The position numbers and the translations under genes were made by a program. The notes beneath the pieces are model-generated. The model made no database searches. It saw only the letters and a list, made by a program, of their open reading frames with translations, and had not been told where the DNA came from. 26,110 nt of DNA from an uncultured archaeon (lineage in GTDB: Archaea > Aenigmatarchaeota > Aenigmatarchaeia > QMZP01 > JAFGSV01): NCBI GenBank assembly GCA_964529545.1, contig CAZGWZ010000002.1:1-26110 (forward strand). The letters are read 5' to 3'. Shown here one piece after another: positions 3 to 26,110 of the stretch (its first letter is position 1; each line of letters begins with the position of its first letter).

Positions 3-3000
3 TCCACTGAAAGCGAGGCCGACGGCTGGTACAACTGCACGTGGCAGAGCGCCACATACGACTCATCGTCATGGTGGAACATCAGGTTCGACATAAGCGC
101 GCCCTTCTACATGCCGAACACAACCATAAAGGAAAACGCCTTCTACCTCGGCGAGATACCTGAGCTGACCAACCCGACCGTGAACGGCCAGACCCAGTAC
201 CTGGGCGGGTGGGGGGAGGACTACGACTTCCTGCTCCACATAAAGGACGACGACCAGAACTGGAACAACGTCAGCCTTATGAAGAGCTTTGACACATATT
301 CATGGAACGAGACCGCGATGCAGAGGATACATGTAACCTACGAGAAATACCTTCCCTCCGACTTCCCGGAGTTCCAGGACCTGTCATTCGCATGCGCCGA
401 TTACCTCAGCGGGCCGCTGAACTACTTCAAGTACTACACAATAGACGAGCCGGGTGGTTTCACCGACGAGACGGGTACCAACCTGTCCAAGTCCATGCAC
501 ACGGCTTCCACGCCTGACTCGGGATTCGGGCACAACGAGAACGTCCTGGAGATAAACATAGTGAACTACTTCATTGTAACTGTCCAGAACACCAACGGCA
601 CGGACATATACGTGAACGTCAGCGTCAACGGCTACCCGCTGGTCACGGATTACATGGTCACTGACGGCACTAACATGACGGTGGACGCCAGGACAAACGG
701 TTCCAGCTTCAGCCTTCCGGGAATGCAGACGATAAACGTCACCATACTCAACTCTTCAGGCTCCGTGGCCAACGCCACTTACGCGGCCTTCCTCAGGTAT
801 TACGCGGGCCTGCTGGAACTCGAGCTGCAGCCCGACAACGTCACCCTCACGGTGAACGGAACGGCAAGCGATGATGACGTGAGGAGGCTTGGCTCTGACA
901 CAGCCAAGCTGCAGTACACTATACGCGACTATGACAGGAACCCGGACGTCTATCCGAGCGGGGTCGACGGGCTTGTATGGATAAGACAGTACGGCGACAC
1001 GCCGCTGTACGAGACGGTCCATGAGACTTTGGACGAGTATGCCATTCTGCACCAGACCTCTTCGGACACGGGATTCAACCACACCGAGGACGTCTCCTCT
1101 TACGGTGAGATGAGCACGTTCAACGTCACGGTCACAAACGGCAACGGGAGCACCATATACATCAACATGACGGTCAACGGCGTCCAGATAGCATCCAACC
1201 AGTCCATCGCGAACGGAGCAAGCTTCAGGGCAGACGCCATAGACCAGGGAGCGGGCTTCACCGTGCCTGGAACACAGACCATCAACGTCACCATGTACGA
1301 GGTCCTCGGAAACATCACCAACTCGACCAAGGTGATAAGGAACATGACCTATTACCAGGACACAGGATTCGTCTACAACGAGACGGTCTCAGAGCCATAC
1401 GTACTCAACTACACGAAGATGAACTACTTCAACATGACGGTGATGAACCTCAATGCAACTCCGATACTCTTCAACCTGACATTAAACGGCTTCCAGCTCG
1501 CGGACAACCAGTCCATTCCCGCGGGAGGAAACGTGTCGATAGGAGCGGTGGATCTCGGCGCAGGCTTCAACATTCCCGGCGACCAGGAGATAAACATGAC
1601 GGTTCTCGGGCCGTCAGGACAGCCAGCCAATGCGTACTATCTGGTCCTTCTCAAGTACTCTTACGAGAGGCTGTTCATACCGCAGGCCACGTACGGCGCA
1701 TACCTGGAGTACGCGGTCAAGGACAGCGGATTCGATTACAACAAGTACATAAACGGCACGGGCGAGGTGATATCCTTCAGCGTCCGCGTAGAGAACCTCA
1801 ACGAGAGCACGCTCTACGTCAACCTCAGCGTCAACGGCGTCCAGATAGCCTCGAACCAGTCGGTGGCCTCGGGGACAAACCTGACGGTGGATGCCATCTC
1901 GGCCGGCGCCAGCTTCAGCGTGCCCGGATACCATCCGATAAACCTGACGGTCATGGACTCCTCCGGCCAGCCGGCCAACGCCTCATACAAGGCTCACATA
2001 ATATACCTTCCCGGCCTGATAAGCCTCCCGTGCACGTCCGTTGCAAACGGCCAGTGCAGCATAAACTACAACCCGAGCTGCAATTCATTCGCGGGCATAC
2101 AGAGATGGAGGGGACAGACCGACGACGTGTGCTATGACACGCCCTACGGCCCGTACGAGAACGTCATCGTGTACGGCCAGCTCTACTCGCATCCTTACAT
2201 TCCCGTTCCTGGAAGCATCATAAACAAGAACACGTACATAACGTTCAACGCGACGGTGACAGACGACTGCGGGAAATTCGTAAACGACAGCTCGGTAGCA
2301 TGGAGGAACCAGACTGGCGGGCTCATAGGAACGGGCTACGGTGCCAGCTGGTTCGTGCCTCCTAACTACAACCTCAGCCTGAACCCGAGCACGTTCTATG
2401 TCAACGCGACGCGCCAGTACTACGATCCCAACGGCACGTACTTCAGTCTGTGGGTCTATGGGTGGAGCGGCATAGACTGGATAACCCCCGCGAACTCCAG
2501 CGAGTTCTCCGCAGGAGACGATGTCCCGGTCACGTGCCATGTCGTAGACGTCGACACCGGCGAGTCCATACAGTCATATCCCGTGTACTTCTACGAGAAC
2601 GGCAGCCTTGAGAACGTCAACGTCACCGACGAAAACGGCTCGGCCCACTGGGTGTGGGACACCTCCACTGAGATAGCAGGATATCACAACATCTCGTGCT
2701 CCATAACAGACAACGCGACCCTCTACTTCAACGCGACGCAGTATGTCAACTACAGCACCATCCTGATCCACAGGCCTCTTGGCATATCCGAGATATGGCA
2801 GAACTACTCGTGGGTATACAGGAACGACTCGTTCGCTCCGAACCAGACCTACATAAGGGTCAGGGTCAAGGATGCCAACCTCCCGCCGCCAAACGAGTAC
2901 GCTCAGAACGCTTTTGTGCACTTCTACAACAGCACGCACTATCTGGGCAACTGCACCACGAACAGCCAGGGATACTGCTTCTTCATATTCAATCCTGACG

Positions 3001-6000
3001 ATTCCGCGACGCCCTCGGCCAACGTCATTTACATAAATGCGACCAAGCCGTCCACTAACGACCCGTCGCCGACGAACACCACGACCGTGACTGTGAGGGG
3101 CATACTGTACATGAACATGACATCCCCGCTGAACGGGACCCTGATACCGAAGACCGTCTCCAACTTCCTTGGAAACGTCAGCGTGTGGGACGAGAACGGG
3201 AACTACACTCTCTCCGTGACGGTCAAGTGGTATGACAAGAAGATGGGGCTGCTCATCATATTAGGTGGCAGCGGAAGGGAGCAGTACATAGACCCAGACC
3301 CGATGGAGACGGGCATCCAGAACATAACGGCAGTCACCAGCAAGACATATTTCGATACGACCAGCCAGAACGTCACGGTAGTAGTATCGGCGGCCGCGAG
3401 CGTCCTCTGGATTTCCCCGCCCCACCTCAGCACGGTCCCGTATCCGAGCCCCTTCAACTTCACGTGCAGGGTGAGGGACGACAACGGCCTCATGGGCGTT
3501 GAGAACTACCCAGTCGAGATATGGTACATGAACGAAGGGGAGAGCAGTTACACCTACAACGGCACGTTCTACACTAACGCGACGGGCTACGTCACAAGGC
3601 CCTGGATACCAGTAGACAAGCTGGACGTCAACCTCAAGTGCAACATAACCGACAACCAGACGCTGCTTTACAACGCATCCACCACTGACGCCGACGCGCT
3701 CATATACATACAGGACAACGAGCCGCCGCAGATACACAGCGTTACCGTGGTACCTAATGCCAGCATGGAGGCCAACCTGAACATGACGAACATAACGGCA
3801 GTCGTGACCGACAACTACAAGGTTTACGAGGTCTACGCCCGCATATTGGTCCCGGGCCTCGGATATAACGATACCAAGATGATGAACACATCGGAAGACA
3901 CGTTCACGATAAACTACATGCCACCTGTGGGCGGCACGTACAACCTGACGATCAGGGCGTGGGACCCCTTCGACGAGCACAACCTCAACGAGTCCGAGAT
4001 ATACCAGTTCACCGTATGGGGAAAGAACGACGGCATAATAAACTCCTCGCCGAGCACCGTCATCGCGTCCGGGATAACCCAGACGGATGACTTCAAGTTC
4101 AACATAACCGTCAATTTCACCAACCCAGGACCGGCCAGGATGTACGGGGTCAACCTGACGCTCTATGACGACTCATCCAATGAGACGGCCTACAGGAACA
4201 TAACCACGCAGCAGCTCCAGAACAACTACACATGCGGGACCTTCGATGTCTCAAGGGGCCTGTGGACGCTTTATCCGGGAGAGTCCTGCGCCTTCAACCT
4301 GTCCGTGACCGTGAAGGAGAAGACATGGCCCAAGCTCATAAGCGTGCACGCCAACGGCACGTGGACGAACCCCGACAAGACCATAAACAGCACGGAGGAC
4401 ATGACCTTCGTCGTGGTATCATCGAACCCTGTGGTCGACATAATAGAGGACATCATTGAGCAGACGACCCCGCACGGCCAGACCACGTTCGTAGACAACA
4501 TAACGGTCGCTTCGGTGGGCAATGACTGGATCCAGAAGGTCAACGTCATAACCTTGGGAGGCAGCATAGGCCTGCCCACGTCACAGGGCGGCTGCCCTGG
4601 ATGCGCGGTAGATATAGACCCGAGCGATTACCAGACGTTCATAATGCCGGGAACGAACTTCAGCACCGACATAACGATAACGGTTCCTGCCGGCCAGCCG
4701 CCAGGCTACATTTGGACGCTGCTTGTAGCCAACGCGAGCAACACCGGGAACGACGAGGCGATAATGAACGTCACGGTCCCGCTTGACAAGACATGGGACA
4801 GCGGCCCGTCCACCTTCGGGACCATTTTCACCCCGCTCGGAACCAACGGCACGATAGGGGTGATAAACTACACGAACACTGGTAACGTCAAGCTGACGAT
4901 ATCATTCGGCAAGAGCGGGCAGAAGGCGAACCTGGTACGCATGAACGACGAGATCTCCGGGCTCATATCATTCGATGTTGACAGGCAGATAGGCGGAGAG
5001 GTGGGCATCACATATTCGATTCCCGTTACCGAAGACCCAGGACTTCATGACATAACCATAAGCATACTCGCCACGGTGACAGACGACGGCGCCATCGCTA
5101 ATCCGCCTTCGAGACAGGTCACTTTCACACTCAACATAACCAACCCGCCGCCGACGATAGGGAACATAACGGTCGACCCCGTTGAGTTCGAGCCTCTGTT
5201 CGGCAACACGAACGTAAGCGCCACGATAACGGATAACGGCATAGTCGATTATGCATGGATGACGGCAACGTGGCCAGACGGCACGAACGTAACGTACCCG
5301 ATGGACCATAACGCTTCCTACTACTGGAGGACCTTCACGGCAGACGTCATAGGCGTCTATGCCTTCCAGGTGTGTGCAAACGACACGGAGAACCTCATAA
5401 GCTGCGAGACTGTCTACGGCCTTGCGACCCTGAATACCACCGTGCTCGCGGTGCCAAACGAGACCACCCTGTACATATCCAATATGACTGTCTATCCGAA
5501 TGCCACGACCGAATACAACCTCACGTTCAACACGACCGCCGGATACGTGCGCGCCTTCGGGATCAACGTGACGATAACGACGCCCAACTCCACGACATGG
5601 AGCGTCACGCCTGACTACTTCGCATTCCCGGTAATCTATGCGAACAAGAGCGAGACGAGGAACACCAGCATAGTCGTGCCTCCGGGCCTCGTCGCAGGCA
5701 ATTACAGCGTCGTGTTCAATGTAAACTGGTCCAACGTGGACAACACCACCGCTAACAGCACCACCAACTTCACGGTCGTCGTGCTGGAGAACGAGCTGAT
5801 GGACGTCCTGAACGACAATGTCACGGTCTGGATAACCAACGGCACTTACGGCGATGAGAACATCACGATACTGTCCGCGGGAAGCGTCAACATATCGAAC
5901 GTGACCGCTGACTGCATCTCAGGATTCGTATGCACTGACGGCAACTTCACGGTCGTATTCAACCCCGACAACATAACCACGATAGAGCCAGGGCATACGG

Positions 6001-9000
6001 ACAACATAACCATAGGCGTATACATACCGTCAGAGCTGCCGGCCGGGTCATACACGGGAATCATAAACGTGACCGCGGATAACTGGCTTTACGAGGTGCT
6101 GAATCTCACGCTCAGAATACCCGAGAACCTGACATGGCTCCAGACACCGTTCGTCATAGAGAAGACCATCATACACGGCACCAGCGGAATAGCCGACATA
6201 ATAAACATAAAGAACATAGGAAACGTGGACCCGACCGAGATAGACGTATACATGGATGAGACGAGAGGCAACTACACGTACTTCGGCCTGGACAAGGACG
6301 TCGTCATACTCAGCCCGACCATGAACGAGAACGTCACGGTGAACTACACCGTTCCCCTGCTTTCCGGGTACGCTAACATAGTGGGCTATGTGATGACGAA
6401 GAACGTGTCTGCCAAGACAGGGACGCTGATAAACGAGACGCTCGTGAACCTGAGCGTGCATCCATACTCGATAGACATACTCAGTCCGCTTGAGACCGAC
6501 CCGGTAATGGGCGTCATGTACACCCAGGAGCTCCAGATAGAGGTGAACCTCACTTACGCCGGAGCCGGCATCAACGACACCAACAACGTCACCTGGGGCG
6601 CGGGGCTCTTCAACACCACGGGAGCCTACCCCGTGAGCATAACCAACACCACATACAACGCCTCTTCCGGGACGTGGCTTTTGAACTTCACCGCCCCGAA
6701 CCTCCAGAACGCGACGGGATACCATATGAACCTCAGCGCAAACTACAGCCATGTCATGGGAGCCGGCGCGAACGCGACTGTGGTAAACCTCTACTACTGG
6801 GACGTCGAGTACAGGTCCGTGATATACGTGGATCCGGTGCCTCCGGACATAGTCATAGGCATAAGCCCGTTCCCGAAGGTCTCCAGAGGCAACCCGGCGA
6901 CCATAACGGTCAACGTGACCGACGCCGGCGGTGTCGCCAACGTGTCAGCCTTCGTCGAGCATCACAACATTACCGAGAGCGTCAACCTCAGCTTCATCAA
7001 GTGGGTAGGCGACACGTACTTCTACAGTGGCGTGTTCACAAATACCACAGAGAAGGGAATATACAACGTCAACGTCACGGCCTACGACATATCCTCCAAC
7101 TACAACACTACGAACAAGAGCTTCCAGGTCTCGGTGCTCGTGTACTTCCACGGATACGCGCTCGATCAGGACGAGCCTGACCCCAAGCCTCCAGTGAGCG
7201 TCAACTACAGCATGTACTTCCTGGATGCGGGCAGCACCATGTCAAGCATAGCGACGGACGCAAACGGATACTACAACAAGACCCTTGACGCCGGGCTATA
7301 TGACATATTCATACGCGTCTGGAACGAGACGCTGTATGTGAGAAGCACGGACATACAAAGACACATGTATAACCCCCTAGTATTCGGTAACATAAAAGAC
7401 ATAGGTCTCGTCGGCTACAACACGAGGGGACTTTTCGAGGCAAGGATATTCGAGGCCAACGACAGCATGTTCGCAGGCAACAAGAGCGACAACACCACGT
7501 GGAACGACACCTTCGAGTTCACGTTCGATAACGTGACTCTGAGCTTCAACTACTCCTCATATTCAGGCGACATAATAAGCACCAACCTGCTCGGCATATA
7601 CCAGTGCACTGACTGGGTTCAGGGAACCGGATGCACGGGCCTGTGGAACAGGCTCAGCGGCGCAGGCGTGAACAGCACGCAGAAGACCATATCAGTAACG
7701 CTTACGTCACTTTCGGGCGGTTATGCCGTCGCCGAGTACATCTGCGGGAACGAGGAGTGCGAGAACGCTTATGGCGAATCGGTCGGTAACTGCCCGCAGG
7801 ACTGCGAGGTAAGCGAGGAGGAGCAGCCGCCTCCTGAAGAGGGCGGAGGCGGCGGAGGCGGAGGCGGCGGAGGCGGCGCCGGTGCTGCAGCCGCGGCAAT
7901 AACGCCACCAAGGATGCCCGTGGAGATAGACTCGCAGCTCATATTCGTGACGCTGCGCCCGGGCGAGCACGAGATACACAGCATAGACATAAAGAACAGC
8001 CTCCCGGCCACGATAACAGCTGACGTGAAGGCTACAGGCAATGCTTGGGAGCTCGTGATGATAGAGCAGCCCAGCATAGACATAAGGGCAGGGTCTACAG
8101 GCACCATAAAGATAAAGGTCTTCACGCTCCCGTCGACCATGGAGGGCATATACACGGGCGACATAGTGACGACCATAAGGGACAGGAACATAACGCACGT
8201 TACGCCGATAACAGTGAAGGTTGAGAGGCCCAAGGAGCCGCTGCTTGACGTCAAGGTCAAGGCGCTAAGCAAGACGGTGGAGCCCGGGACGAACCTTTCG
8301 CTTGAGGTAACGCTTCTCAACATGGGAGAGACCGCTGAGATAGACGACGTTGTGATAACCTATGAGATAAGGCATCTGGACAATCCGGAGATTGTGATAA
8401 GGGAGAGGGAGACCCTGGCGATAGACCAGGTCAAGACTTTCAAGAGGAGCATGTTCATACCCGAAGACACCCTCATAGGAAGGTACTCCGTCGAGCTCAA
8501 CGTGACCTACTGGGACGGACAGAAACAGGCATTCGCGATAGACTCCTTCGACGTACTCTATGTGGCGCCGCCTCTGAAGATGCTTCAGGCGCTGTTTTCC
8601 AGCTGGATAACGTATGCCATAATATTCGCTCTGATACCAGGCTACCACTTCGGCTCGCAGTTCTACCGCGACTGGAGAAAGAAGAAGAAGGCCAAGACGA
8701 GGTACATATTCCCGATGAACGTCAACAAGCTTCCGAAGGCGGGAGATGCCTCGCTTCTCGTAGGAAAGGTCGCAGAGACTGAGATAAAGGCGTACATGAC
8801 CATGAGCGACCTGACGACGCACAGCATAGCCGCAGGTTCTACGGGTGCCGGAAAGTCGGTGTCGGCACAGGTCTGCTCCGAGGAGCTTCTCAAGAGGGGC
8901 GTTCCGATAGTCGTAATAGACCCGACCGCGCAGTGGACAGGGTTCATGAGGCCGTGCAAGGACCCGGCGATGCTAGAACTTTATCCGAAGTTCGACCTGA

Positions 9001-18000: not shown

Positions 18001-18326
18001 TACTGATACTTATAATATTGGCCCTGGCGCTCGTGGTGGTCATAAGCAGGTACAAGAAGAAGCTGGAGAAGGTATTCAAGTTCAGAAAGACCGTGACGGA
18101 CTCTGTCGCGGCAGCGGACGTGTTGGGCTCATTCGGCGGCGGTGGCGCCCCAAGCAAGGTGGAGCAGGAGGCCATAGCCAGGACGAGGCGCGAAGAGGAG
18201 AAGAAGAAGATAGAGAAGGTGCTGTCCCTTCTGGAGAGGGAGTACAAGGAAGGCATAATATCAGAGAAGGCATATAACGAGCTCGTCAAGAGGAACGCGG
18301 ACAAGCTCAAGGAGCTCGGAGGCTAG
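12027..18326 (+). CDS. Second giant surface glycoprotein (~2099 aa): N-terminal signal/TM, DUF2341-like and Ig-like domains, C-terminal TM and SHOCT-like cytoplasmic tail
   Basis: ATG 12027 (7 nt after the previous stop) gives MIGTKSITGIALVGIIALVFILNARFTG, a signal-like start. The track's start at 11985 overlaps the upstream gene. Other elements: WWNATWTYRIKI (12471, DUF2341-like start), YDDGSHGDQVAGDYVYS (13788-13838, acidic Ca-binding-like), Gly/Pro linker near 17283-17370, TM WMITLILILIILALALVVVI (17985-18044) followed by RYKKK, and dense N-x-S/T. Confidence 0.88.
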   Translation: MIGTKSITGIALVGIIALVFILNARFTGSYVYVPGSTSGLAIWSSYDPQGGSIVPFINENMTFYANFTTLGGAPIAGAGVTCDIEFNSTGFWTAPAGMTYDPGNQLYGYEGSFKYSGNHSFRVTCNGSTQGYDANLQGNDTYNVHKNEWWNATWTYRIKISLYNHGVQLDDWPVEVDLNLTEVLRQINVEGTFDDNSTRVVEYNSTGGVMHPLPSQFDKDLHHNPATNAFGTLVFMANGTTPANYNRTFFMYFDIEENGLKEQPSYPTNISYLLSGDEIHINTTSFSFYMDTNRSDNTSGLYDVRFKDYPVPFFIVDETGRTAEYSEYSNGTNNLSFDFTSGVAIIEGPLRLTVIQTGDEVLFGDLSSPTGEGMMVKKYHFYNKAGNETLGAFIHITQNYTNIAAYPVQRNSTAMGSIAFDVGRAWQGLGSSVSFYDGNSSDPGSWVMAGSDAQEVLGMVNLNETTDEFYVYNYTPYERIGVQLDSVTVDPFESIIQTALLYIGSGSTSEFIAVRDITRDMPAVTSGSYETMPMESITHTDYDVYNRNETIFIESNITYDPYSFLDTVNVSLSNGTPGAGDDIEIEVYDDGSHGDQVAGDYVYSNFFNISTTENTGLWTASTIVYDMFGVPVNQSHKNFTITKTFFVNTSVINQNGEIDREVNATVFVMNYRQDTWQEGAFVNCSVYDSTTLLYTVDQQDVNQTEPGRFFVNFTAPWYFGSFTLNCTAGKDGNDGSDISDFGAEDVETDIDITVQPENHTFVNITWITGDNITLRVNATNTQNGTAYNATVDLELPSNITANSTSYICETDEGAKQIMIGKACYVDFVINVMNTTAPSNFTLNVSVTWNNSNTIIGHNETSMNVTILPTYLMSVPQDNIITMIARGINKSLSNITIYSYGNAPLENVNFDVIGFSQAFHFSFIPSGYTQVNAGVTTEFAAYLLVDEGYSTGFFTGILNVTTSNNGYKELELNITVSGTNVSINVLPENITASNITYYDSQNFTLDFNSSNMGNNTAYNTNVTINFSSPYISTTNSTNYQCGDLQPGENCSGIFLLTVSNGTPSGLYDANVTVVWGNPEIGVMMNSSVINITVESNVNMTINETSINGTVVHGTTGVIGNFSMNSTGNDPVTGIELTIVDTYGQLQDFTVNVIPNVSATQGGNMTSGQLVYVDVEVSVPLGYPNGTYAGFLNVTSNNSGYRLLGIEVTVPETRTWDMSPLDCMHPESPEFGTVCNVTIENTGNVQIEFDIYPPATGDSNLTMNNYTWPSVTYFSIENQSSFILSIYYNVTDAPLTFYNSSYNVTGVYTVPQSRNVSILLTPFVNPLINISVSPSSLPQQNSTELVAYVLDQGGVAGINFTRVNVTRPNGTVDQIVMRYLGGTDPYIYQEFYPADPLNGTWGSTLSRGNYTVVGYAEDNLGLNQTANSSFYVYVVLVAGISTSRSNGEYYQGETGTLLFNVTELSGIPLSGVNVSIVIKDPTNHSVGMQNSEFLTNSQGEPSSYPTFELFSDSLTGTYNITVTSAFNDTPVSRICYDTSYSSFTVLETTPGVLTLDLEAPSEVSTGDGLEVYATITNGVNNIDPDWIMVSLYDSLDNAILTNQTMTYQSTGRYSRWHNTSASVNTGSWRWHVTIGKDGNVISKDVFTRLVGGLFDVRDITIVDNTIEDLQITVVIENTGDIPQDVFVLWNLTRLDTGAPLQEGLDTVRIDPLTSYVYTINPSGITYTGSARILFVASYSGTEKAAAFEDFTIQEGGEGPAPPPGGGKTKEEEAPSGGAGLGPVGAPDIEITDYPDEIPTEAGRLQYPSVTVNNTGSVSLHNVMIRIEGIPNSWYNVTPKLIPIVNPGSTGTFVINMLVPQGTEARQYYGVINATSDEAKDEKITSVIVFGSREELVRYQLQKLKEEFKEFREDVNATAAMGEKDLSRVYGLIDEIQYQIDLTEGYLDAKMYDEALEAVTTGWRLLDRARELLRDAPPLRPVTILEIPDWMITLILILIILALALVVVISRYKKKLEKVFKFRKTVTDSVAAADVLGSFGGGGAPSKVEQEAIARTRREEEKKKIEKVLSLLEREYKEGIISEKAYNELVKRNADKLKELGG

Positions 18327-18338
18327 CCCCAGGCGCGG

Positions 18339-18490
18339 TTATACGTTCGTAACAGTACCCTTGTTATTATATGTTCATACTATTTTTTGCAAAAAAATCA
18401 AATCATATGAAACAAACACCTCCGAGCCTCTGGCAAGGGGAGGCATTTTCCGACTTCTGATATGGGGTGTCTTTTTTTATATGTTCATAC
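18339..18490 (+). promoter_or_regulatory. AT-rich spacer with a direct repeat TTATATGTTCATAC (18367-18380, 18477-18490) and a degenerate third copy (18339-18352)
   Basis: An exact 14-bp direct repeat at 110-bp spacing; the third copy TTATACGTTCGTAA matches 11/14. Each begins with a TATA-like TTATA. Confidence 0.55.
18383..18396. terminator. Perfect palindrome TTTTTTGCAAAAAA; possible oligo-T terminator on both strands or a protein-binding site
   Basis: Lies 57 nt after the cluster 1 stop. Oligo-T tracts are the usual archaeal termination signal. Confidence 0.4.
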
Positions 18491-18514
18491 AATAATCATA
18501 AACAGGGTGTGAAA

Positions 18515-19183
18515 TTGGGCAAAGTAAAGTCGAAACTCACTGAATACAAGAACTTCTGGCTGATATGGCTCTCAGCTGCGGGCCAGGAGAACGGGATATC
18601 GCTTTTCCGGATACAGAGCACATGGGGCATAAAGACCAACTACCTGTACCACAACGAGGCGGTCATACAGAAGCCGCTCTTCCGCATAATGGAGGAGGGG
18701 GGCTTCATAGAGATATCCGGCAAGAAGATAATCGCCAAGTTCAGTTGGATACCGGACTACCTCGGCGAGCTCTTCTCAGCCGAGAAACCCGTGGGAGGCT
18801 TCTGGTCACCCGAGCTCGTCATGAAGGCCAAGTGGCCTCTCGTCCAGCCCTTCATGGAGAAGTACAGGAAGTACTTCTTCGAGCTCTCGAACCTTCGCAT
18901 GCTCTACCGCGACGACAGGGACGTCCTCGGTATATACGGAAGGTACGTGTTCCAGCACGTATTCCTCTACGTGCTCTTCTCAAACATCATAGCCTTCTCC
19001 AAGAGGTACAGCGCCGACATAGTGACGAAGATGATAGCTACATCGGTGTCCCTGGGAAGCGGCGCTGACGTCCTCAACTACATGTACCAGCTTCATTCCA
19101 CTATAGGAGGTTCCTCGGATTTCCCGGTGCTCTCCAGCAACGAACAGGAGCTCGGCAGGATACTCTGCACGCTCAGATGGTGA
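18515..19183 (+). CDS. Hypothetical cytoplasmic protein (~222 aa), N-terminal half possibly winged-helix-like
   Basis: Typical codon usage for this window. The start is probably TTG 18515 (GGGTGTGA upstream) or GTG 18509 rather than the track's 18467, which lies in the AT-rich spacer. The helix-helix-hairpin pattern (LFRIQSTWG..NYLYH..LFRIMEEGGFIEISGKKIIAKF) is only suggestive. Confidence 0.7.
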   Translation: MGKVKSKLTEYKNFWLIWLSAAGQENGISLFRIQSTWGIKTNYLYHNEAVIQKPLFRIMEEGGFIEISGKKIIAKFSWIPDYLGELFSAEKPVGGFWSPELVMKAKWPLVQPFMEKYRKYFFELSNLRMLYRDDRDVLGIYGRYVFQHVFLYVLFSNIIAFSKRYSADIVTKMIATSVSLGSGADVLNYMYQLHSTIGGSSDFPVLSSNEQELGRILCTLRW

Positions 19184-19186
19184 GAC

Positions 19187-19230: not shown

Positions 19231-20004
19231 ATGGCAAGGATTATAGGCATACTATCTGGAAAGGGCGGGGTGGGCAAGACGACCACCGTCGCAAACGTCG
19301 GGACAGCCCTCGCCTCGCAATACAAGAAGAACGTGATAATAGTCGACTGCAACATAACCACGTCCCATCTCAGCCTTTACCTTGGGATGTACTATTCGCC
19401 CGTGACGCTGAACCAGGTGCTGACGGGCAAGGCCAAGATACACGAGGCCATATACGACTACCACGTCCCGGGACTCCGGGTCATACCGGCATCTCTCTCC
19501 TTGAAGGACCTTCGTGGCGTGGACGTCTCAAGGCTGTCCAAGGTAGTAAAGAAGATAACCGACGAGGCGGACATAGTGCTCCTGGATGCAGCTCCCGGCA
19601 TGGGACGCGAGGCCATGTCGACGATGCGCGCAAGCGACGAGGTCCTCTTCATATCGACTCCTTTCGTTCCGTCCACGATGGACATAATAAAGTGCCATCA
19701 GGTCGCTCTCGAGGTAGGGACCAAGCCCCTCGGGATAGTGCTCAACATGGTCGGCAAGGAGAAGTACGAACTGTCCACCGAGGAGGTGGAGCAGCTGGCG
19801 GAACTCTCGGTCATACAGGAGATACCGATGGACAAGAACGTCCTTCGAAGCCTCGCCCTCAAGACGCCTGTAGTGTCCTTCGACCCGAACTCTCCCGCAA
19901 GCCGGGCGTTCCTGGAACTTGCCGGCAAGATAATAGGAGAGAAGTACGCGCCGGAGAACTTCTTCACGAGGTTTGCAAGGCTCTTCGGGATAGGAAAGAA
20001 GTAG
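19231..20004 (+). CDS. minD: MinD/ParA-family ATPase, archaeal MinD type
   Basis: Deviant Walker A GKGGVGKTT (19258-19284), VIIVDCN, IVLLDAAPG and a C-terminal amphipathic membrane-targeting helix FFTRFARLFGIGKK (19960-20001). Confidence 0.9.
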   Translation: MARIIGILSGKGGVGKTTTVANVGTALASQYKKNVIIVDCNITTSHLSLYLGMYYSPVTLNQVLTGKAKIHEAIYDYHVPGLRVIPASLSLKDLRGVDVSRLSKVVKKITDEADIVLLDAAPGMGREAMSTMRASDEVLFISTPFVPSTMDIIKCHQVALEVGTKPLGIVLNMVGKEKYELSTEEVEQLAELSVIQEIPMDKNVLRSLALKTPVVSFDPNSPASRAFLELAGKIIGEKYAPENFFTRFARLFGIGKK

Positions 20005-20040
20005 GCGCTTTATACGCTTAGCAATACGTTTCTAGCAATT

Positions 20041-20051: not shown

Positions 20052-20072
20052 CTATAACCAATTATAAGACAG

Positions 20073-20354
20073 ATGGGTATGTGGCTAGACATAGGATTGT
20101 CGGTATTCCTTGTTGCATCCGTGGTATTTCTAATCTATGAAATGAGGAAATTCAAGACGCTTCATTCGAAGAAGTACGAGCTTCCGACAGAAAAGATATG
20201 GGAAAAGTTCGTCGGCATCAGGCCGGAGGACATGGCAGACTCAGACCTCACCATGAAGGTCCAGAAGCTCGAGGGGAAGCTCGACCAGATACATAACGAT
20301 CTCGAGAAGCAGAGGAAGCTCACTTTGAAACTCATTGAGGAGCTTGGTAAGTGA
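20073..20354 (+). CDS. Small bitopic membrane protein with cytoplasmic coiled coil (93 aa)
   Basis: Hydrophobic MWLDIGLSVFLVASVVFLIY followed by RKFK. C-terminal heptads KVQKLEGKLDQIHNDLEKQ. The stop overlaps the next start (GTGATG). Confidence 0.8.
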   Translation: MGMWLDIGLSVFLVASVVFLIYEMRKFKTLHSKKYELPTEKIWEKFVGIRPEDMADSDLTMKVQKLEGKLDQIHNDLEKQRKLTLKLIEELGK

Positions 20355-22300
20355 TGTTTGGGAAGGGCAAAGGCGAAGAGGAGAAGATGCAGGAAGAAGA
20401 GAAGAAAAAGAAAGAGGAAGAAAAGAAGAAGATGGAAGAGGAAATGAAGAAGAAAGAGGAAGAAAAGAAGAAGCAGGAAGAGGCGCAGCCACCTGCTGAG
20501 ACGGCTCCTCCTGAGCCAGCCGCTGGTCCTGAATCCCATGGCGGCGGCCTTGAGGGACTCAAGAACATAAGCGAGTCACCTGCCAATGCTGAAGAGAAAC
20601 CGCCTGAAGAAACCGTCCCGAAGACCCCTCCGGAACCCTCTCCCGAGGAGACTGCTACTGAAGAGAAGCCCAAGAAGAAGGCAAGGAAGGAATCCGCGTC
20701 TGAGACCGAGAAGCTCAGGAAGCAGATAGAGACCCAGAAGGAGAGCCTTCGCGCGCTTGAGAAGGAGAAGGAGGATGCGATGAAGAAGGGCGATGAGCTC
20801 GCAAGCCTCATAGAGGACATATCGAGCGAGATGAAGGAAGCCAAGGCCGCGCCTGCAGCCCAGGCTGCACAGCCTGCCCCTCAGATGCCTGACATAACGC
20901 CAAAGCTCAAGGAAATAGAGGAGAAGACCACAAGCCAGATAAGCGCTCTGCAGGCGGCCATCGCGGAGATGGGCAAGAAGAAGGATGATGAGAAGAAGGA
21001 CGAGGAAGACGTCACTGCGACCATGAAGAAGATGTTTGACAAGAGGCTAAAGGAGCTATCAGACAAGCTCGAGGAGGCCAGCGCCAAGCCCGCTCCAGGG
21101 ACCGGTCAAGGCCAGGGCGGGGAGGTGTCCGGCGGCCTCAGCGCCATCGGCGGAGGCGTGGAGTTCAAGAAGGAAGTGGACAGCCTCAAGAAATCATTGA
21201 AGGACATGGCTACGCTGCTGGATGCTTTCAAGGAGGAGGCTGAGAACAGGTTCATGGCGATAGACCGGGAGATGCAGGTCGTCGAGAGGTTCCCGGAAAT
21301 GGAGCAGAAGATGGACCAGTTCGAGAAGAAGCTCGGGCCCGAGAACGTCCAGAGGCTCAGGCTCCTCATATCGAGCGCCGACGACCTAAAGGACGAGGTC
21401 ATACCGCTCGTCGTCAAGAGGGTTGTCGAGGACAAGGTCGAGCCGCATTCCAGGAAGGTAAAGGAGGTCCAGGACGAGAACAGGAAGAACAGGGAGAAGA
21501 TGCTTGAGATATCAGCGGAGCTGAAGGCTGACAGGAAGGACATAGAGAAGCTCTACAAGCTCGATGACAGGATATCAAAGCTCGAGGAGCTCACGAGCGG
21601 CTTCACCAAGCTCATAGCCGAGGTCAGGACGACGATGAAGGACCTCGACAAGAACCAGAGGATCGAGCTCTCGGAGAAGATGAAGGAGATGCTTCCAAAG
21701 ATGATAGAGACAGAGTCCAGCAACGTGAGAAAGGAGTTCGCGGCAAGGTTTGCATTCATGGAGGAGGCGCTGAAGTCTGCCGAGAACGTTGCTTCCGAGG
21801 CCCACAAGGACATAGCGGCGCTCTCCGCCATAAAGGGCGAGATGGACATGCTCGACGACAAGATGAACTCGCTCGACGAGGAGAAGGAGAAGCTCGAGAT
21901 GAAGATAGAAGGCCTCAGGTCGAAGGACAAGGACATAGAGGACAGGCTTGACGACATGCAGACTCCGAAGGAGATAATAACGGAGCTGGACAACAAGACC
22001 AAGGACATACTCGACATAAGGGAGTTCTTCGTGAGGCGAGCGAACCAGCTTGAGGAGAGGATAAACCAGCTGGACGAGAGGGCCGTCCCCACAAAGAAGC
22101 TCCACGAGAAGGTGGACAGCATATTTGCAAACCTTTCCGAGCTCCGCGAGAATTACAAGAAGCTCGACGAGAGGGTCACTGCAGAGAACAAGCAGTTCCA
22201 GACGCTCATAAAGGAGCATTCTGAGCAGAAGGCCAAGCTTGAGGACAAGCTCAAGGAGCAGAAGACGAGGATCTCGGTCCTTCTGAAGGAGTTCAAGTGA
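20351..22300 (+). CDS. Long coiled-coil protein with N-terminal E/K single-alpha-helix segment and Pro-rich disordered linker (648-649 aa)
   Basis: Start GTG 20351 or ATG 20354, coupled to the upstream stop. EEEKKKK-type repeats at 20375-20482; the remainder is E/K/L/I/M heptad-rich; no TM. Confidence 0.85.
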   Translation: MMFGKGKGEEEKMQEEEKKKKEEEKKKMEEEMKKKEEEKKKQEEAQPPAETAPPEPAAGPESHGGGLEGLKNISESPANAEEKPPEETVPKTPPEPSPEETATEEKPKKKARKESASETEKLRKQIETQKESLRALEKEKEDAMKKGDELASLIEDISSEMKEAKAAPAAQAAQPAPQMPDITPKLKEIEEKTTSQISALQAAIAEMGKKKDDEKKDEEDVTATMKKMFDKRLKELSDKLEEASAKPAPGTGQGQGGEVSGGLSAIGGGVEFKKEVDSLKKSLKDMATLLDAFKEEAENRFMAIDREMQVVERFPEMEQKMDQFEKKLGPENVQRLRLLISSADDLKDEVIPLVVKRVVEDKVEPHSRKVKEVQDENRKNREKMLEISAELKADRKDIEKLYKLDDRISKLEELTSGFTKLIAEVRTTMKDLDKNQRIELSEKMKEMLPKMIETESSNVRKEFAARFAFMEEALKSAENVASEAHKDIAALSAIKGEMDMLDDKMNSLDEEKEKLEMKIEGLRSKDKDIEDRLDDMQTPKEIITELDNKTKDILDIREFFVRRANQLEERINQLDERAVPTKKLHEKVDSIFANLSELRENYKKLDERVTAENKQFQTLIKEHSEQKAKLEDKLKEQKTRISVLLKEFK

Positions 22301-22304
22301 TAAA

Positions 22305-24434: not shown

Positions 24435-24435
24435 C

Positions 24436-26110
24436 ATGGCTGATTTCAACAAGATCAGGACCGGCATAAGTGGCCTGAAGAAGGAGAGGGAGGAACTGAA
24501 GAGGAGTTACGAGTTCCTCTCGGCCGAGCTTGAGAAGGCCGTCAGCGGCAATGCCTCTGCCATAGGGAAGCTGACGGACAAGACGGCATCATTTTCTGCA
24601 GGCCTCGCCTCGCTCGAGGAGAGGATATCCAAGACAGACGGCATGCTTGGAAGCACCAGGGCGTCGCTCTCAGACGAGATATCCGCCATAGGAAGCAGGC
24701 TCGAAGCCCAGAAGAAGGCGCTTGCTGACATAGGGCAGATGCTACAGAAGACGAGCGATGTCGCCCAGGGCGCTGCAAAGGACGTAGCTGAGTCTGCCAG
24801 ATTCGACAAGGCTTTATCCAACACGCTGCAGGGCCTGAACTCAACGGTCAGCGCGATGTCAGAGAAGGTCGCTTCGATTGCAAAGTCCCTTGACGAGAGG
24901 ATAGAGGTCCTTGACAAGAAGTTCACCGCCGGGATAGGGATAATAAGGGACAACTCCGAAAGCCAGACGACTGTCATAAAGCAGCACGATGCATCGATGA
25001 ACAAGGTGCTCCTCTCGATACAGTCTCTCAAGAAGGACATCGCGGCGGTCAACGAGAGGGTGGCCCGCGTCAAGGAGAGCTCCTCGGGAAACGCGAAGAG
25101 GCTCGAGGCCATAGGAACGCTCGAGTCCAAGATAAAACACATCGAAGACGTCAAGTCCGGCCTCGTCAAGGGCGTCGAATCGCTCCGGGACATGAGGAAC
25201 CAGATGGCCGCAATCGCCCAGAAGACAAGGGACCTCGAGAAGAGGCTCACTGATGCTGACAAGCTGCTCGACACAAGGATAACCGAGAAGGTCGGCATGC
25301 TCGATACCCAGATAGCCGACAAGACCGGCGTCATCGAATCGCAGATGAAGGAGAGGCTCAAGTTCCTCGAGACGAACCTGGAGGAACAGGGAAGGACGTT
25401 CGAGGCCAGGATATCCGCGGACATGGAGGGTCTCGGAAGGAGCATGACGCGCGAGATAGCTGACTTAAAGAAGCTTCGCGAGAGCGTCAAGAAGGCCGAG
25501 ACGGAGATAGGCGCTCTCAAGGAGAATGCGACAGCCATAAAGTCATACGAGGATGAGAACAAGAAGGACATATCGGCGCTTGCCGCCAGGATGAACTCGG
25601 TTGACGACCTCTACGGCCGCGTCATCGAGATAGAGGAGGCAAAGGATGCGGTCATCAAGGGGATGGGCGTAGCTGACAACCTCGGAAAGGAACTGTCGCT
25701 TCTCTCTGAGCGGGTCAGGTCATTCCAGACCAAGGCCTCTTCAGACGTCTCGTCGCTCAGGACCGACACAAAGAAGAACGCCACCGGCATAGCTGACATG
25801 AGGCTTACGCTCACAGGCCTTAAGAAGGACGTCCAGCGGAGCATATCCGCGGACATGTCTTCAATGGGGGCCGTGCTGAAGAAGAACACGGCGGACATAT
25901 CCAGGATCAACGTCGACATGGCTGGGATAAAGAGCACCATAAACGAGAAGATACCCGGTGACGTCTCGAAGCTCGTGACCACTTCCAAGAGCAACTCGGA
26001 TTCCGTGTCCAGGATAAATCTTGAGCTGGCCGGAATGAGAGAGACCATAAAGAAGAGGATACCGGCAGACCTTTCAAGTCTTGTGGCGGAGTCGAAGAAG
26101 AATTCTGGTG
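24436..26110 (+). CDS. Long coiled-coil/helical-repeat protein, 3'-partial (>=558 aa), missing from the ORF track
   Basis: GGAGGG at 24425-24430 and ATG 24436, one nt after the previous TGA. I translated MADFNKIRTGISGLKKEREELKRSYEFLSAELEK... and found no stop before the window end. Confidence 0.88.
   Translation, partial: MADFNKIRTGISGLKKEREELKRSYEFLSAELEKAVSGNASAIGKLTDKTASFSAGLASLEERISKTDGMLGSTRASLSDEISAIGSRLEAQKKALADIGQMLQKTSDVAQGAAKDVAESARFDKALSNTLQGLNSTVSAMSEKVASIAKSLDERIEVLDKKFTAGIGIIRDNSESQTTVIKQHDASMNKVLLSIQSLKKDIAAVNERVARVKESSSGNAKRLEAIGTLESKIKHIEDVKSGLVKGVESLRDMRNQMAAIAQKTRDLEKRLTDADKLLDTRITEKVGMLDTQIADKTGVIESQMKERLKFLETNLEEQGRTFEARISADMEGLGRSMTREIADLKKLRESVKKAETEIGALKENATAIKSYEDENKKDISALAARMNSVDDLYGRVIEIEEAKDAVIKGMGVADNLGKELSLLSERVRSFQTKASSDVSSLRTDTKKNATGIADMRLTLTGLKKDVQRSISADMSSMGAVLKKNTADISRINVDMAGIKSTINEKIPGDVSKLVTTSKSNSDSVSRINLELAGMRETIKKRIPADLSSLVAESKKNSG
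25771..26110 (+). repeat. Tandem 36-aa (108-bp) coding repeat, 3 copies plus the start of a 4th
   Basis: KKNATGIADMRLTLTGLKKDVQRSISADMSSMGAVL / KKNTADISRINVDMAGIKSTINEKIPGDVSKLVTTS / KSNSDSVSRINLELAGMRETIKKRIPADLSSLVAES / KKNSG, starting at 25771, 25879, 25987 and 26095. Confidence 0.8.

Follow-up and report, generated by a model that had tools for sequence, protein, structure and literature searches.

A MinD-linked giant-protein cassette in an Aenigmarchaeota contig as a candidate version of the SPEARE-type cell-surface apparatus of DPANN archaea

Gene layout of the locus

The window, meaning the whole stretch of 26,110 nucleotides that was analysed, is a contig of Aenigmarchaeota, tiny archaea of symbiotic type. 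It is filled by nine co-directional genes (g1 to g9), which form two tight units, g1-g3 and g4-g9.

3-9776, + strand: g1, at least 3257 aa, frame open at the 5' end of the contig
9797-12019, + strand: g2, 740 aa
11985 or 12027-18326, + strand: g3, 2113 or 2099 aa
18327-18514, + strand: g3-g4 spacer, conserved; contains three TATA-like boxes plus the element AACAAAC...GAGCC
18515-19183, + strand: g4, 222 aa, TTG start
19231-20004, + strand: g5 (MinD)
20073-20354, + strand: g6, 93 aa
20351-22300, + strand: g7, 649 aa
22305-24434, + strand: g8, 709 aa
24436-26110, + strand: g9, frame open at the 3' end, 558 of ~840 aa

All convincing genes of the window lie on the + strand, and the long ORFs of the minus strand all fall inside these genes and have no Pfam match. 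Spacers within the units measure -4 to 68 nt, while 188 nt with TATA-like boxes separate g3 from g4. This spacer is likely the promoter region of the second unit; it has no match in Rfam, and a search for a consensus RNA fold found none. The ORF of g3 is open from position 11985, with the ATG at 12027 as the likely start, and the start of g4 was set by 30 orthologues together with gene call P0156 of the sequence collection. No tRNA genes and no metabolic or housekeeping genes were found in the window; gene layout, Pfam and tRNA check all agree with the first-pass annotation, which had described two coupled clusters on one strand without housekeeping interruption.

g1 combines a giant ectodomain with a HerA-clade ATPase

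The product of g1 is a type-I membrane glycoprotein comprising an ectodomain, a poly-Gly hinge, Ig-like modules, a transmembrane (TM) helix, an ATPase and a cap.

3-8579, + strand: ectodomain, beta-rich and enriched in N-glycosylation sequons
7842-7878, + strand: poly-Gly/Ala hinge, a GGC/GGA tandem repeat (TRF and translation)
8580-8636, + strand: single TM helix (hydropathy scan), next to the positive-inside signal RKKKKAK
8700-9572, + strand: cytoplasmic HerA-clade P-loop ATPase
8835-8858, + strand: Walker A, GSTGAGKS
9213-9230, + strand: Walker B, MMIYDE
9294-9314, + strand: invariant REFRKWG
9573-9773, + strand: C-terminal three-helix cap, equal to the "coiled-coil tip" of SPEARE proteins

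Above Pfam cut-offs, g1 matches NPCBM_assoc, DUF87 and HerA_C. The ectodomain carries 164 sequons compared with 46 ± 6 expected from shuffles, and cytoplasmic parts carry 0-2. The signal peptide and the N-terminal ~1000-2000 aa probably lie off the contig, judging from longer full-length relatives: representatives with tails 52-59% identical to that of g1 have 4179-5201 aa, several of them starting with signal peptides, and full-length relatives overall span 4179-7852 aa. The hinge is the border between a variable distal part and a conserved membrane-proximal base module, and the alignment of short family members of 720 aa with g1 begins only at aa ~2631, just below it.

The HerA-clade ATPase retains both Walker motifs along with 69 invariant residues and is predicted to be catalytically intact. 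Its AF2 model (mean pLDDT 78) has the HerA hexamer 4d2i as top Foldseek match in the PDB (E = 1.7e-7), and the PDB sequence search returned HerA-type proteins only. In the model of the g1 tail, a helix at residues 57-101 covers the TM region, and the helices of the cap occupy residues 392-457 with a pLDDT of ~90. The cap, which has the invariant residues E428, A432, K435, M443 and Y447 (alignment A1), is kept in nanohaloarchaeal homologues. Structural matches of the FtsK/SpoIIIE, EccC, coupling-protein and Ced/Ted type have E = 1e-5 to 1e-3, and curated HerA equivalog models reach 22-24 bits against cut-offs of 800-970. The earlier assignment to the ring-type ATPases of the HerA/FtsK superfamily is borne out by Pfam, fold match and intact motifs alike.

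The SPEARE proteins of Nanohaloarchaeota have this design, in which a giant ectodomain is followed by a C-terminal TM helix, a conserved P-loop domain on the cytoplasmic side and a coiled-coil tip; similar sequences in Aenigmarchaeota were reported at the same time (Hamm 2019, PMC6642349). A reanalysis in 2023 regarded SPEARE as a VirB4/TraG-like "straw" and proposed a T4SS-like role in transfer (PMC10266531). Taken strictly, this published proposal would make the giant a T4SS-like conduit and its VirB4/TraG-like ATPase the motor of effector injection into the host, which we consider improbable here. It agrees with Foldseek matches to the coupling proteins and secretion ATPases TcpA, VirB4 and EccC, ranked under HerA, and with weak Pfam matches to TraG, TrwB and AAA_10 among family members. 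The two published SPEARE annotations appear to rest on weak ResIII, TraG and TrwB matches, which members of the family also show. However, the ATPase groups with HerA in sequence as well as in fold. On g1, AAA_10 scores below its cut-off (19.5 vs 27.5 bits), and the NCBIfam matches to TraC, TraD and CedD cover only the Walker A region, far under their cut-offs. The locus has no VirB4 N-terminal domain, VirB6/VirB8/VirB10, pilin or second ATPase, there is one TM helix per subunit, and the ectodomain is predicted to form arrays of beta-sandwiches rather than a tube. Pfam and curated-model searches confirmed what had been noticed at first reading, namely that pilin, VirB6/VirB8 and archaellum genes are missing from the window; Ced components are missing too.

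The partner g2 and the second giant glycoprotein g3

Among the 72 species-level genome loci with at least 2 kb of flank, 71 have a g2 homologue 3' of the ATPase, at a distance of at most 150 nt in 57 of these. The g2 product is a cytoplasmic coiled-coil protein with an acidic/lysine-rich, disordered N-terminal half, a conserved core of coiled coil (aa ~406-687) and a C-terminal SHOCT-like helix; no TM helix was found in it, and it has 2 sequons. Its C-terminus covers the full Pfam SHOCT model below threshold (E = 0.0016), and GvpG gives a further below-threshold match (E = 1.6e-5). The helix motif of the g2 C-terminus is also present in the tail of g3.

12042-12098, + strand: g3 N-terminal TM helix/signal
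~17280, + strand: g3 G/P hinge, preceded by the ectodomain
~17418-17621, + strand: g3 NPCBM_assoc domain, followed by a helical stalk
17988-18044, + strand: g3 C-terminal TM helix
to 18323, + strand: g3 SHOCT-like cytoplasmic tail

The plan of g3 is that of g1 without the ATPase: a giant distal part, a hinge, an Ig-like module, a stalk, a TM helix and a tail. Its ectodomain carries 108 sequons (31 ± 5 expected from shuffles), and BLASTP aligns the ectodomains of g1 and g3 at 25-30% identity across 150-430 aa, with homologous modules common to both. TM topology and sequon excess thus agree with the initial view that both giants are exposed on the surface. The giant of locus L003 is 30% identical to g3 over 1990 aa, and short g3 versions of 340 aa match only g3 aa 1802-2113. 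SHOCT-like tails occur in nearly all g3 and in many g2 orthologues.

g4, MinD and the coiled-coil proteins

19954-20001, + strand: g5 C-terminal amphipathic membrane-targeting helix, FFTRFARLFGIGKK
20079-20135, + strand: g6 N-terminal TM helix, followed by a short cytoplasmic coiled coil
20375-20483, + strand: g7 K/E-rich repeat; g7 also has a Pro-rich linker and a coiled coil

On sequence grounds, g4 is a new protein specific to Aenigmarchaeota, with 144 homologues, none of which has a Pfam domain. The AF2 model (pLDDT 83, pTM 0.83) predicts a winged-helix-like N-terminal domain and a helical domain for which the fold search of the PDB gave no match. g4 always accompanies MinD, and in two loci (L028 and L050) g4 and g5 are flipped as a unit. 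That g5 is a MinD, as suggested earlier, holds against the curated archaeal model TIGR01969 minD_arch (244.6 bits, cut-off 201.75), and Pfam agrees. g5 has the deviant Walker A GKGGVGKT, and its amphipathic C-terminus is kept among cassette-linked MinDs.

In close relatives, g6 orthologues lie directly 3' of MinD. g7 orthologues in collinear loci are 47-68% identical. g8 encodes a coiled-coil protein with repeated GKDIxxL modules, its orthologues having 669-744 aa and distant relatives 1052-1359 aa, and g9 encodes a coiled-coil protein whose orthologues have 840-844 aa in L091, L094 and L095; the L095 operon stops after g9. The private motifs that had been claimed to link the two units fared differently. 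The SHOCT-like tails are kept in orthologues, and KDIExLYK, found at aa 396 of g7 and aa 199 of g8, is semi-conserved as KDIxxLxK among the orthologues of both. KNISESPANAEEK, which occurs at aa 113 of g2 and aa 71 of g7, is not: it is absent from g2 orthologues, and close g7 orthologues keep only a GLKNI core. At the DNA level the two copies are 84% identical over 51 nt, every difference within the 13 codons being synonymous.

Conservation and distribution

The closest loci are from Aenigmatarchaeota MAGs, with ATPase tails 76-85% identical, in line with the DPANN origin suspected at the outset. As had also been predicted, both units are linked in related genomes: four loci (L095, L103, L105 and L107) carry g1-g2-g3-g4-g5-g7... 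on a single contig, and all MinD-centred metagenome loci, 26 in number, keep g6-g9 in collinear order wherever the flank allows the check. Of 48 loci, 36 carry g3. MinD is present in 22, in several gene orders relative to the cassette, and absent within 10 kb in 26; g4 and the four coiled-coil genes come with it in the Aenigmarchaeota clade, g6-g9 being clade-specific. Short paralogous cassettes keep the order ATPase, g2, short g3, MinD.

Another reading is a housekeeping machine of the envelope, in which g3, and perhaps g1, would be S-layer or stalk glycoproteins. The membrane-anchored FtsK/HerA-like ATPase, MinD, the wHTH-like g4 and the SMC-like coiled coils would then act in assembling the envelope, placing the division site or segregating chromosomes, and not in contact with a host. 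In its favour, g5 is a MinD. g3 follows the classic archaeal S-layer/stalk plan (a signal and a glycosylated ectodomain rich in beta structure, then a helical stalk and a TM helix at the C-terminus), and its length is nearly constant among divergent loci (~1910-2100 aa at ~30% identity). The g1 family is very widespread, occurring in at least 543 species-level genomes and forming 355 clusters at 50% identity, and includes MAGs of Altiarchaeota (L064), to our knowledge a lineage without a known need for a host. g4 beside a ParA/MinD-type ATPase recalls ParA-adaptor and SegAB pairs; its Foldseek search of the PDB gave nothing below E = 0.4, and the weak matches are all wHTH regulators. However, g1 ranges in length between about 720 and 7852 aa among loci and some genomes have two cassettes, which is atypical for a lattice protein, and the distal ectodomains diverge fast above conserved bases, as in adhesins. 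The SMC and Rad50 matches of the coiled-coil proteins are confined to coiled-coil segments and far under cut-offs, MinD ends in a helix that targets the membrane, and a DNA-binding homologue of ParB or SegB was not detected. Overall, we regard this reading as rather unlikely.

HerA ATPases are also known from Sir2-HerA and DUF4297-HerA defence and from conjugative and viral systems. Weak PADLOC matches (HerA, mad8) and haloarchaeal plasmids with distantly related DUF87 genes (24-27% identity) would be compatible with an anti-virus defence or mobile-element (conjugation/packaging) module. Such a module is very hard to reconcile with the locus: neither a nuclease, a Sir2 nor another effector partner was found, 2.9 million viral contigs contained no relatives and the phage search gave a single distant match, the cassettes of L001, L004 and L111 adjoin core genes, among them genes for ribosomal proteins, and a giant glycosylated ectodomain has no role in these systems.

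Proposed apparatus

We propose, with a probability of roughly 0.55, that the contig encodes the Aenigmarchaeota version of a DPANN-wide SPEARE-type cell-surface apparatus, acting as a contact machine as follows. The g1 ATPase would hexamerise like HerA and FtsK enzymes, so that six stalks would be bundled at the membrane. g2 might join the ring cap to the g3 tails via the common SHOCT-like helices, and MinD with g6-g9 could set the assembly site on the membrane. The g1 and g3 ectodomains would attach to another cell, and at the contact the g1 ring may spend ATP on moving or remodelling a polymer, DNA or protein. The function of the apparatus, like the "polar", "transfer" and "cytoplasmic base" roles of the first-pass annotation, is what we infer. 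Several observations count against the proposal: the family's occurrence in Altiarchaeota MAGs, the loci without MinD within 10 kb, the restriction of g6-g9 to one clade, and the second ATPase that halophilic Nanohaloarchaea have in place of g2 and MinD. Moreover, the cassette has no conserved channel protein of the polytopic kind and no conserved pilin, nuclease, relaxase or effector, so that a membrane-crossing conduit is not evident.

Comparison with known systems

The first-pass annotation knew of no system with such an architecture, but g1 has the published SPEARE design (PMC6642349, PMC10266531). Like SPEARE, g1 is giant and mostly extracytoplasmic; its C-terminal TM helix leads to a conserved P-loop domain in the cytoplasm, and the protein ends in a coiled coil. 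The named SPEAREs (NAR1_1133, AOV94740.1) were compared by published architecture and other nanohaloarchaeal ecto-TM-ATPase proteins by sequence, the latter being 42-43% identical to the g1 tail (E about 1e-114). As here, SPEARE can have a second giant as neighbour: SG9 has adjacent versions of 4057 aa and 3315 aa (PMC6642349, PMC10266531), the latter with a TM helix toward the N terminus, and short versions of ~650-720 aa exist too. According to proteomics SPEARE is expressed, with ecto and cytoplasmic parts in separate size fractions (PMC6642349), which would fit cleavage at the hinge. The laminin-G, serine-protease and toxin-like domains of some SPEAREs were not found in the window, nor laminin-G or protease domains in two close orthologues. 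The partner genes differ: in L111, a halophile locus, the giant is followed by another DUF87 ATPase, without g2 or MinD, whereas here g2, g3, g4, MinD and coiled-coil genes accompany it. In the literature we found no description of the g2 partner, the base module plus hinge of g1 and g3, the SHOCT-like tails of g2 and g3 or the link to MinD and coiled coils. Thus, the SPEARE protein type is already published, and its conserved partner genes appear to be undescribed.

HerA (HerA-NurA, Sir2-HerA) is the best relative of the ATPase core in sequence and fold, sharing its RecA-like core and both Walker motifs. Unlike HerA, g1 is membrane-anchored with a giant ectodomain; the N-terminal HAS-barrel of HerA was not identified in it, and the locus has no NurA, Sir2 or nuclease partner. 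FtsK/SpoIIIE, EccC, VirD4/TrwB/TcpA and Ced/Ted form rings of the same superfamily that move DNA or protein across envelopes, tethered by N-terminal TM helices; either their subunits have several TM helices each or a polytopic channel protein is their partner. Pfam and curated models detected none of their defining partners in the window, and we know of no such system with an ectodomain fusion.

MinD/ParA-family ATPases put surface machines at defined membrane sites. g5 resembles bacterial MinD, FlhG, ParC and Haloferax MinD4 by its deviant Walker A, and its amphipathic C-terminal helix resembles the membrane-targeting sequence of bacterial MinD. In contrast to these positioning systems, the window has no MinC or MinE, the partner of g5 is the novel g4, and g5 is genetically tied to a giant-protein cassette.

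Organization of the locus

The window, a whole contig, has a GC content of 51–57% over its 26,110 bp and is filled by nine genes (g1–g9), all on the plus strand. The first-pass annotation had described two tightly coupled clusters, which is accurate because a spacer of 188 nt with TATA-like boxes parts g3 from g4 and the genes are packed within the units g1–g3 and g4–g9, where they lie 1–68 nt apart or overlap by 4 nt. Neither tRNA genes nor Rfam families were found across the window, and long minus-strand ORFs were rejected as genes, all of them lying inside plus-strand genes and having no Pfam match.

Features of the locus
3–9776, plus strand: g1, giant protein with ectodomain, transmembrane (TM) helix and ATPase; open at the 5′ end
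7842–7878, plus strand: poly-Gly hinge of g1, a GGC/GGA repeat
18327–18514 (188 nt): g3–g4 spacer with TATA-like boxes
24436–26110, plus strand: g9, coiled-coil protein; open at the 3′ end

The g3–g4 spacer is kept in 10 close loci and contains three similar TATA-like boxes, TATA[C/T][G/A]TTC[G/A]TA, with an AACAAAC...GAGCC element between the second and the third box. A more distant clade has an analogous layout, ATAGTATATTTATATAA ... AACAAACGGTTAATGTTCC. At related locus L093 (9053–9259 and upstream) the spacer reaches 585 nt with an extra GC-rich insertion of ~380 nt, which matched no Rfam family at the gathering score. Judged from its sequence, the spacer could contain promoters in tandem or operators bound by the wHTH-like g4, or could give rise to a small transcript. 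A small RNA was rejected, with no Rfam match, no RNAalifold consensus and no consistent single-sequence hairpin, which leaves the spacer as a putative promoter or operator region. Scanning for bacterial sigma-70 promoters and terminators was uninformative, the host being an archaeon.

The giant glycoprotein g1 and its ATPase

The g1 protein has at least 3257 aa and consists of a beta-rich ectodomain of at least 2859 aa and a single TM helix (aa 2860–2878), which is followed by the positive-inside signal RKKKKAK. N-glycosylation sequons are enriched solely N-terminal of this helix, with 164 in the ectodomain compared with 46 ± 6 expected. Below the hinge, the order is membrane-proximal Ig-like modules (NPCBM_assoc), TM helix, cytoplasmic P-loop ATPase and a C-terminal three-helix cap that is confident in the AF2 model. 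Beyond NPCBM_assoc, Pfam found nothing in the ectodomains of g1, whose N-terminal ~1000–2000 aa are off the contig, and of g3, the second giant anchored glycoprotein; two close full-length g1 orthologues gave NPCBM_assoc only, plus Big_7 in one of them.

Gly/Pro/Ala runs of low complexity form the hinges of g1 (7842–7878) and g3 (~17280). In g1 the run is a perfect tandem repeat of GGCGGAGGCGGCGGA, and its length may therefore vary by slippage. The separate size fractions published for the extracytoplasmic and cytoplasmic parts of SPEAREs, giant proteins of Nanohaloarchaeota, would fit cleavage near such a hinge.

The features of HerA/FtsK superfamily ring ATPases, namely Walker A, Walker B and a RecA-like core, are present in g1. 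Pfam assigned DUF87 with 33.5 bits (cut-off 23.2) and HerA_C with 28 bits (cut-off 22). Walker A (GSTGAGKS) and Walker B (hhhhDE, here MMIYDE) are intact, as are all 69 residues that are invariant across a 17-sequence family alignment. For the AF2 monomer model of the g1 tail (pLDDT 78), the best Foldseek match was the Sulfolobus HerA hexamer 4d2i (E = 1.7e-7), followed by other HerA complexes and then by TcpA, DndH, VirB4, FtsK and EccC.

The partner protein g2, the second giant g3 and shared motifs

One half of the cytoplasmic protein g2 is charged and disordered; the protein also has a coiled-coil core and a C-terminal helix. In g3, an N-terminal TM helix or signal precedes a 1963-aa ectodomain, a G/P hinge, NPCBM_assoc, a helical stalk of ~90 aa, a TM helix and a cytoplasmic tail of 93 aa. 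Its ectodomain carries 108 sequons compared with 31 ± 5 expected and shares homologous modules with that of g1.

The C-terminus of g2 covers the full SHOCT model (PF09851) with 18.5 bits against a threshold of 27 (E = 0.0016), and Pfam found no SHOCT match in the g3 tail; “SHOCT-like” is used here for a resemblance only. Sharing of this helix between proteins had been noticed in the first-pass annotation and was confirmed in relatives: its consensus, LExEYkeGiISekaYxeLkkRnxxKL, is kept in nearly all g3 tails, including short versions and one Nanohalarchaeota locus, and is also found in many g2 C-termini. As a sequence hint it is the strongest one for contact of g2 and g3 with a common partner or with each other. 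Two further motifs had been proposed as shared. KDIExLYK held in part, as a semi-conserved KDIxxLxK in orthologues of the coiled-coil proteins g7 and g8. The other, KNISESPANAEEK, is a 13-residue identity between g2 and g7 with synonymous differences only; g2 orthologues lack it, and close g7 orthologues retain only GLKNI. It was rejected as a motif conserved across the clusters, and on this sequence comparison it appears to be a lineage-specific copy and not a family feature. The 51-nt segment encoding it (10133–10183 in g2, 20561–20611 in g7; 84% identity) looks like either a selectively maintained copy or the product of recent gene conversion.

MinD, g4 and the coiled-coil genes

The MinD protein g5 scored 244.6 bits with the archaeal MinD model TIGR01969 (cut-off 201.75) and has a deviant Walker A with the signature lysine (GKGGVGKT). 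Its amphipathic C-terminus, FFTRFARLFGIGKK, resembles the membrane anchor of bacterial MinD and is predicted to be a membrane-binding segment. An end of this type is kept in about 50 MinDs linked to the cassette, as we call the g1-like ATPase together with its linked partner genes; g5 itself has no exact-sequence record. The 222-aa protein g4 had no Pfam, NCBIfam or PADLOC match. It has 144 homologues, none with a Pfam domain, and every named one comes from Aenigmarchaeota. AF2 gave a confident model of g4 (pLDDT 83, pTM 0.83), which had no significant PDB neighbour; the weak matches were all winged-helix regulators, which is only a hint that g4 may be wHTH-like.

The remaining genes encode a TM helix with a coiled coil (g6) and long coiled-coil proteins (g7, g8 and g9). 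The N-terminus of g7 is encoded by an imperfect 21/42-nt tandem repeat (20375–20483), which yields the (E/K)-rich run EEKKKKEEEKKKMEEEMKKKEEEKKK. Relatives of g9 have about 840 aa, and in L095 the operon ends after g9. Matches of the coiled coils to SMC, Rad50, apolipoprotein, baculovirus PEP/P10 and spectrin were all below cut-offs and were judged compositional.

Size and forms of the g1 family

In word-indexed protein searches with the ATPase tail, the listed proteins did not exceed about 800 aa, and an exhaustive search was needed for the giants. It yielded 355 clusters (50% identity) at E ≤ 1e-30 with lengths up to 7852 aa. Representatives with 52–59% identical tails have 4179–5201 aa, and several begin with signal peptides. 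An alignment scan with the tail, using one genome per species, gave at least 543 loci with relatives, of which the best 80 were analysed. The loci are mostly labelled Aenigmatarchaeota, the rest being Micrarchaeota, Nanoarchaeia, Woesearchaeota, Nanohalarchaeota, Altiarchaeota or Parvarchaeota; the closest, among them the Aenigmatarchaeota MAG locus L008, reach 76–85% identity. Since the g1-like frame is open over the entire 10-kb upstream flank in 40 loci, the giant form is the norm. A short cassette is found in L001, L002, L004, L079 and L082, comprising a 720-aa ATPase, g2, a 340-aa g3-like protein and MinD, and short and giant cassettes coexist in at least two genomes. The short proteins align solely to the portions of g1 and g3 below the hinges, which defines a conserved base module of both giants.

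Upstream of short cassettes (L001 2203–4434; L004 7663–9907; L079; L082) lie three conserved proteins without Pfam match (~180, ~194 and ~305 aa), which are secreted or anchored, and in L001 and L004 genes for a prepilin peptidase (Peptidase_A24) and a DUF1512 protein follow a few kb downstream. Five family members of ~1300–1700 aa (P0314, P0328, P0337, P0341 and P0371) run 300–700 aa beyond the ATPase cap, with low-complexity linkers and a repeated module (...F..HV...KNDFA.WI...). We rejected a g1–g2 fusion for these five, inspected by eye and without alignment, the repeated module being different from g2; by sequence, the extension would be a cytoplasmic tail solution different from a separate g2 gene. 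The cassette also occurs on short contigs of Heimdallarchaeota-labelled bins (L033, from MAG YT1_048 on a 3.5-kb contig, and P0033), which most likely reflects mis-binning of DPANN DNA and not an Asgard origin.

Linkage of the genes in relatives

The window proteins were compared by phmmer with six-frame ORFs of the loci (the best 80 of at least 543). A g2 homologue lies downstream of the ATPase in 71 of the 72 loci with at least 2 kb of flank, within 150 nt in 57 of them. With at least 9 kb of flank, 36 of 48 loci have a g3 homologue and 22 of 48 a MinD, the latter in several gene orders. A MinD-centred metagenome scan gave 26 loci, all collinear as g3-g4-g5-g6-g7-g8-g9 wherever flank exists, and four metagenome contigs carry g1 through g7 together. 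The two clusters are therefore linked in relatives, as the proposal of a single locus had implied.

In 18 loci (for example L003/L042, 5095–5553, minus strand), a ~154-aa polytopic membrane protein that carries HExxH is encoded between g2 or MinD and g3. This protein, absent from the window, resembles Peptidase_M50B below threshold and might be an intramembrane protease acting on the anchored giants. In L111 (2396–7749), from a halophilic Nanohaloarchaea genome, family members of 1157 and 627 aa stand in tandem with a 4-nt overlap, each with ectodomain, TM helix and ATPase. This one locus lacks g2 and MinD, and its second DUF87 ATPase, located after the long one, seemingly replaces g2; the cassette thus varies between lineages.

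Possible function of the apparatus

The topology of the locus, its intact ring-family ATPase, the gene partnerships, the shared tail helices and the membrane-anchor-like end of MinD form the frame of the following model. By analogy with HerA, FtsK and EccC, the g1 ATPase would assemble as a hexameric ring that bundles six stalks, and ATP hydrolysis might drive movement or remodelling of DNA or protein. The g2 protein may bridge the g1 cap and the g3 tails, and MinD together with g6–g9 could fix the assembly site, as in the positioning systems of MinD, FlhG and MinD4. A simple conduit is disfavoured by one TM helix per subunit and by the lack of a conserved polytopic channel, pilin or nuclease.

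The g1 and g3 ectodomains would contact another cell. The main rival explanation is an S-layer or division-type role in the cell's own envelope, which would agree with a g3 of constant length and S-layer-like build and with a broad family that extends to Altiarchaeota; the extreme length variation of g1, the paralogous cassettes and the fast evolution of the distal parts speak against it. The cell-contact reading can be extended to an unrecognised DPANN-wide organelle, in which a HerA-type hexamer in line with six giant glycoprotein stalks forms a motor-coupled extracellular fibre, g2 clamps the fibre to g3 via the SHOCT-like helices, membrane-binding MinD and g4 place the assembly on a coiled-coil cytoskeleton, and the ring draws DNA of the host or some other polymer into the symbiont or else retracts or rotates the fibre. 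We consider this extended form unlikely, with roughly one chance in seven; if true, the cassette would be the long-sought host-contact and uptake machine of DPANN archaea.

Comparison with known systems

Several described systems differ from the locus. Sequence and structure matches place the g1 ATPase nearer to HerA than to VirB4, because of the DUF87, HerA_C, HerA-type PDB and Foldseek matches and because AAA_10 stayed below its cut-off. Matches of g1 to TraC, TraD and CedD are confined to the Walker A region. HerA in the strict sense, with an N-terminal HAS barrel and a NurA partner, does not include g1: no NurA was found in the window locus, and NCBIfam HerA models gave 22–24 bits against cut-offs of 800–970. 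In none of the nine window proteins was a part of type IV secretion or conjugation systems detected (CagE_TrbE_VirB N-terminal domain, VirB6/VirB8/VirB10-like channel, pilin or relaxase). For Ced/Ted import, no polytopic, CedA-type protein is present in the window, and the sole Ced-related NCBIfam match was the CedD model (36 bits, cut-off 600). PADLOC found only weak HerA and mad8 matches of the ATPase and no Sir2, DUF4297 or nuclease effector; an origin of the cassette as defence system, plasmid, virus or other mobile element was rejected.

The first-pass annotation knew of no system with this architecture, a claim not borne out by the literature on SPEAREs (PMC6642349, PMC10266531); its observations held overall and its interpretation did so only in part. 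SPEAREs were described in Nanohaloarchaeota as proteins of up to 8553 aa that lie largely outside the cytoplasm and have their TM helix close to the C-terminus (Hamm et al. 2019, PMC6642349), and a mud-volcano study added an example of 12,127 aa. The intracellular part is the most conserved region and was annotated ResIII-like in 2019, laminin-G and other adhesion domains and in some cases a serine-protease domain were reported for the ectodomain, and expression was shown via proteomics (PMC6642349). Strain SG9 has adjacent SPEAREs of 4057 and 3315 aa, of which the shorter has its TM helix on the N-terminal side, as well as a 655-aa version; similar sequences in Woese-, Aenigm- and Micrarchaeota and in Altiarchaeales were already stated (PMC6642349). 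A reanalysis in 2023 found no endonuclease domain, disputed the protease domain, described the ATPase as VirB4/TraG-like, with a coiled-coil tip after it, and put forward a T4SS-like “straw” (PMC10266531). Weak Pfam matches of g1-family members to ResIII, TraG and TrwB probably underlie both earlier annotations.

Like SPEAREs, g1 is very long and mostly extracytoplasmic, with a TM helix on the C-terminal side and a cytoplasmic C-terminal region, and its tail is 42–43% identical (E about 1e-114) to proteins from a Nanohaloarchaea genome with the same build of ectodomain, TM helix, ATPase and cap. In contrast to SPEAREs, Pfam detected no laminin-G, other adhesion or serine-protease domain in the on-contig part of g1, nor in the two close full-length orthologues. 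Compared with these Nanohaloarchaea-labelled homologues, g1 is very likely a member of the SPEAREs, of which NAR1_1133 and AOV94740.1 are named entries.

SPEAREs are the leading published candidates for the attachment of DPANN archaea to their hosts and the uptake of host material, and work on them has concerned only single giant genes of halophiles. In the open-access full text, we found no description of g2 as a universal partner, of the base-plus-hinge design common to g1 and g3, of the SHOCT-like tails shared by g2 and g3 or of the linkage to MinD, g4 and coiled-coil genes. The window and roughly 100 relatives place the giant ATPase in a conserved multi-gene cassette in Aenigm-, Micr-, Woese-, Nano-, Nanohalo- and Altiarchaeota-labelled genomes, with g2 as near-universal cytoplasmic partner, with giants whose membrane base is conserved and whose distal part, beyond a hinge, varies, and with a tie to a putatively membrane-binding MinD in many lineages, joined in the window by a set of coiled-coil genes. 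We regard the locus as a variant of the SPEARE-type apparatus, a kind that is already known but experimentally almost uncharacterised, and see its value, rather than in a new class, in a conserved and defined parts list that is usable for pull-downs, multimer modelling, cryo-ET labelling and assays of ATPase and DNA translocation.
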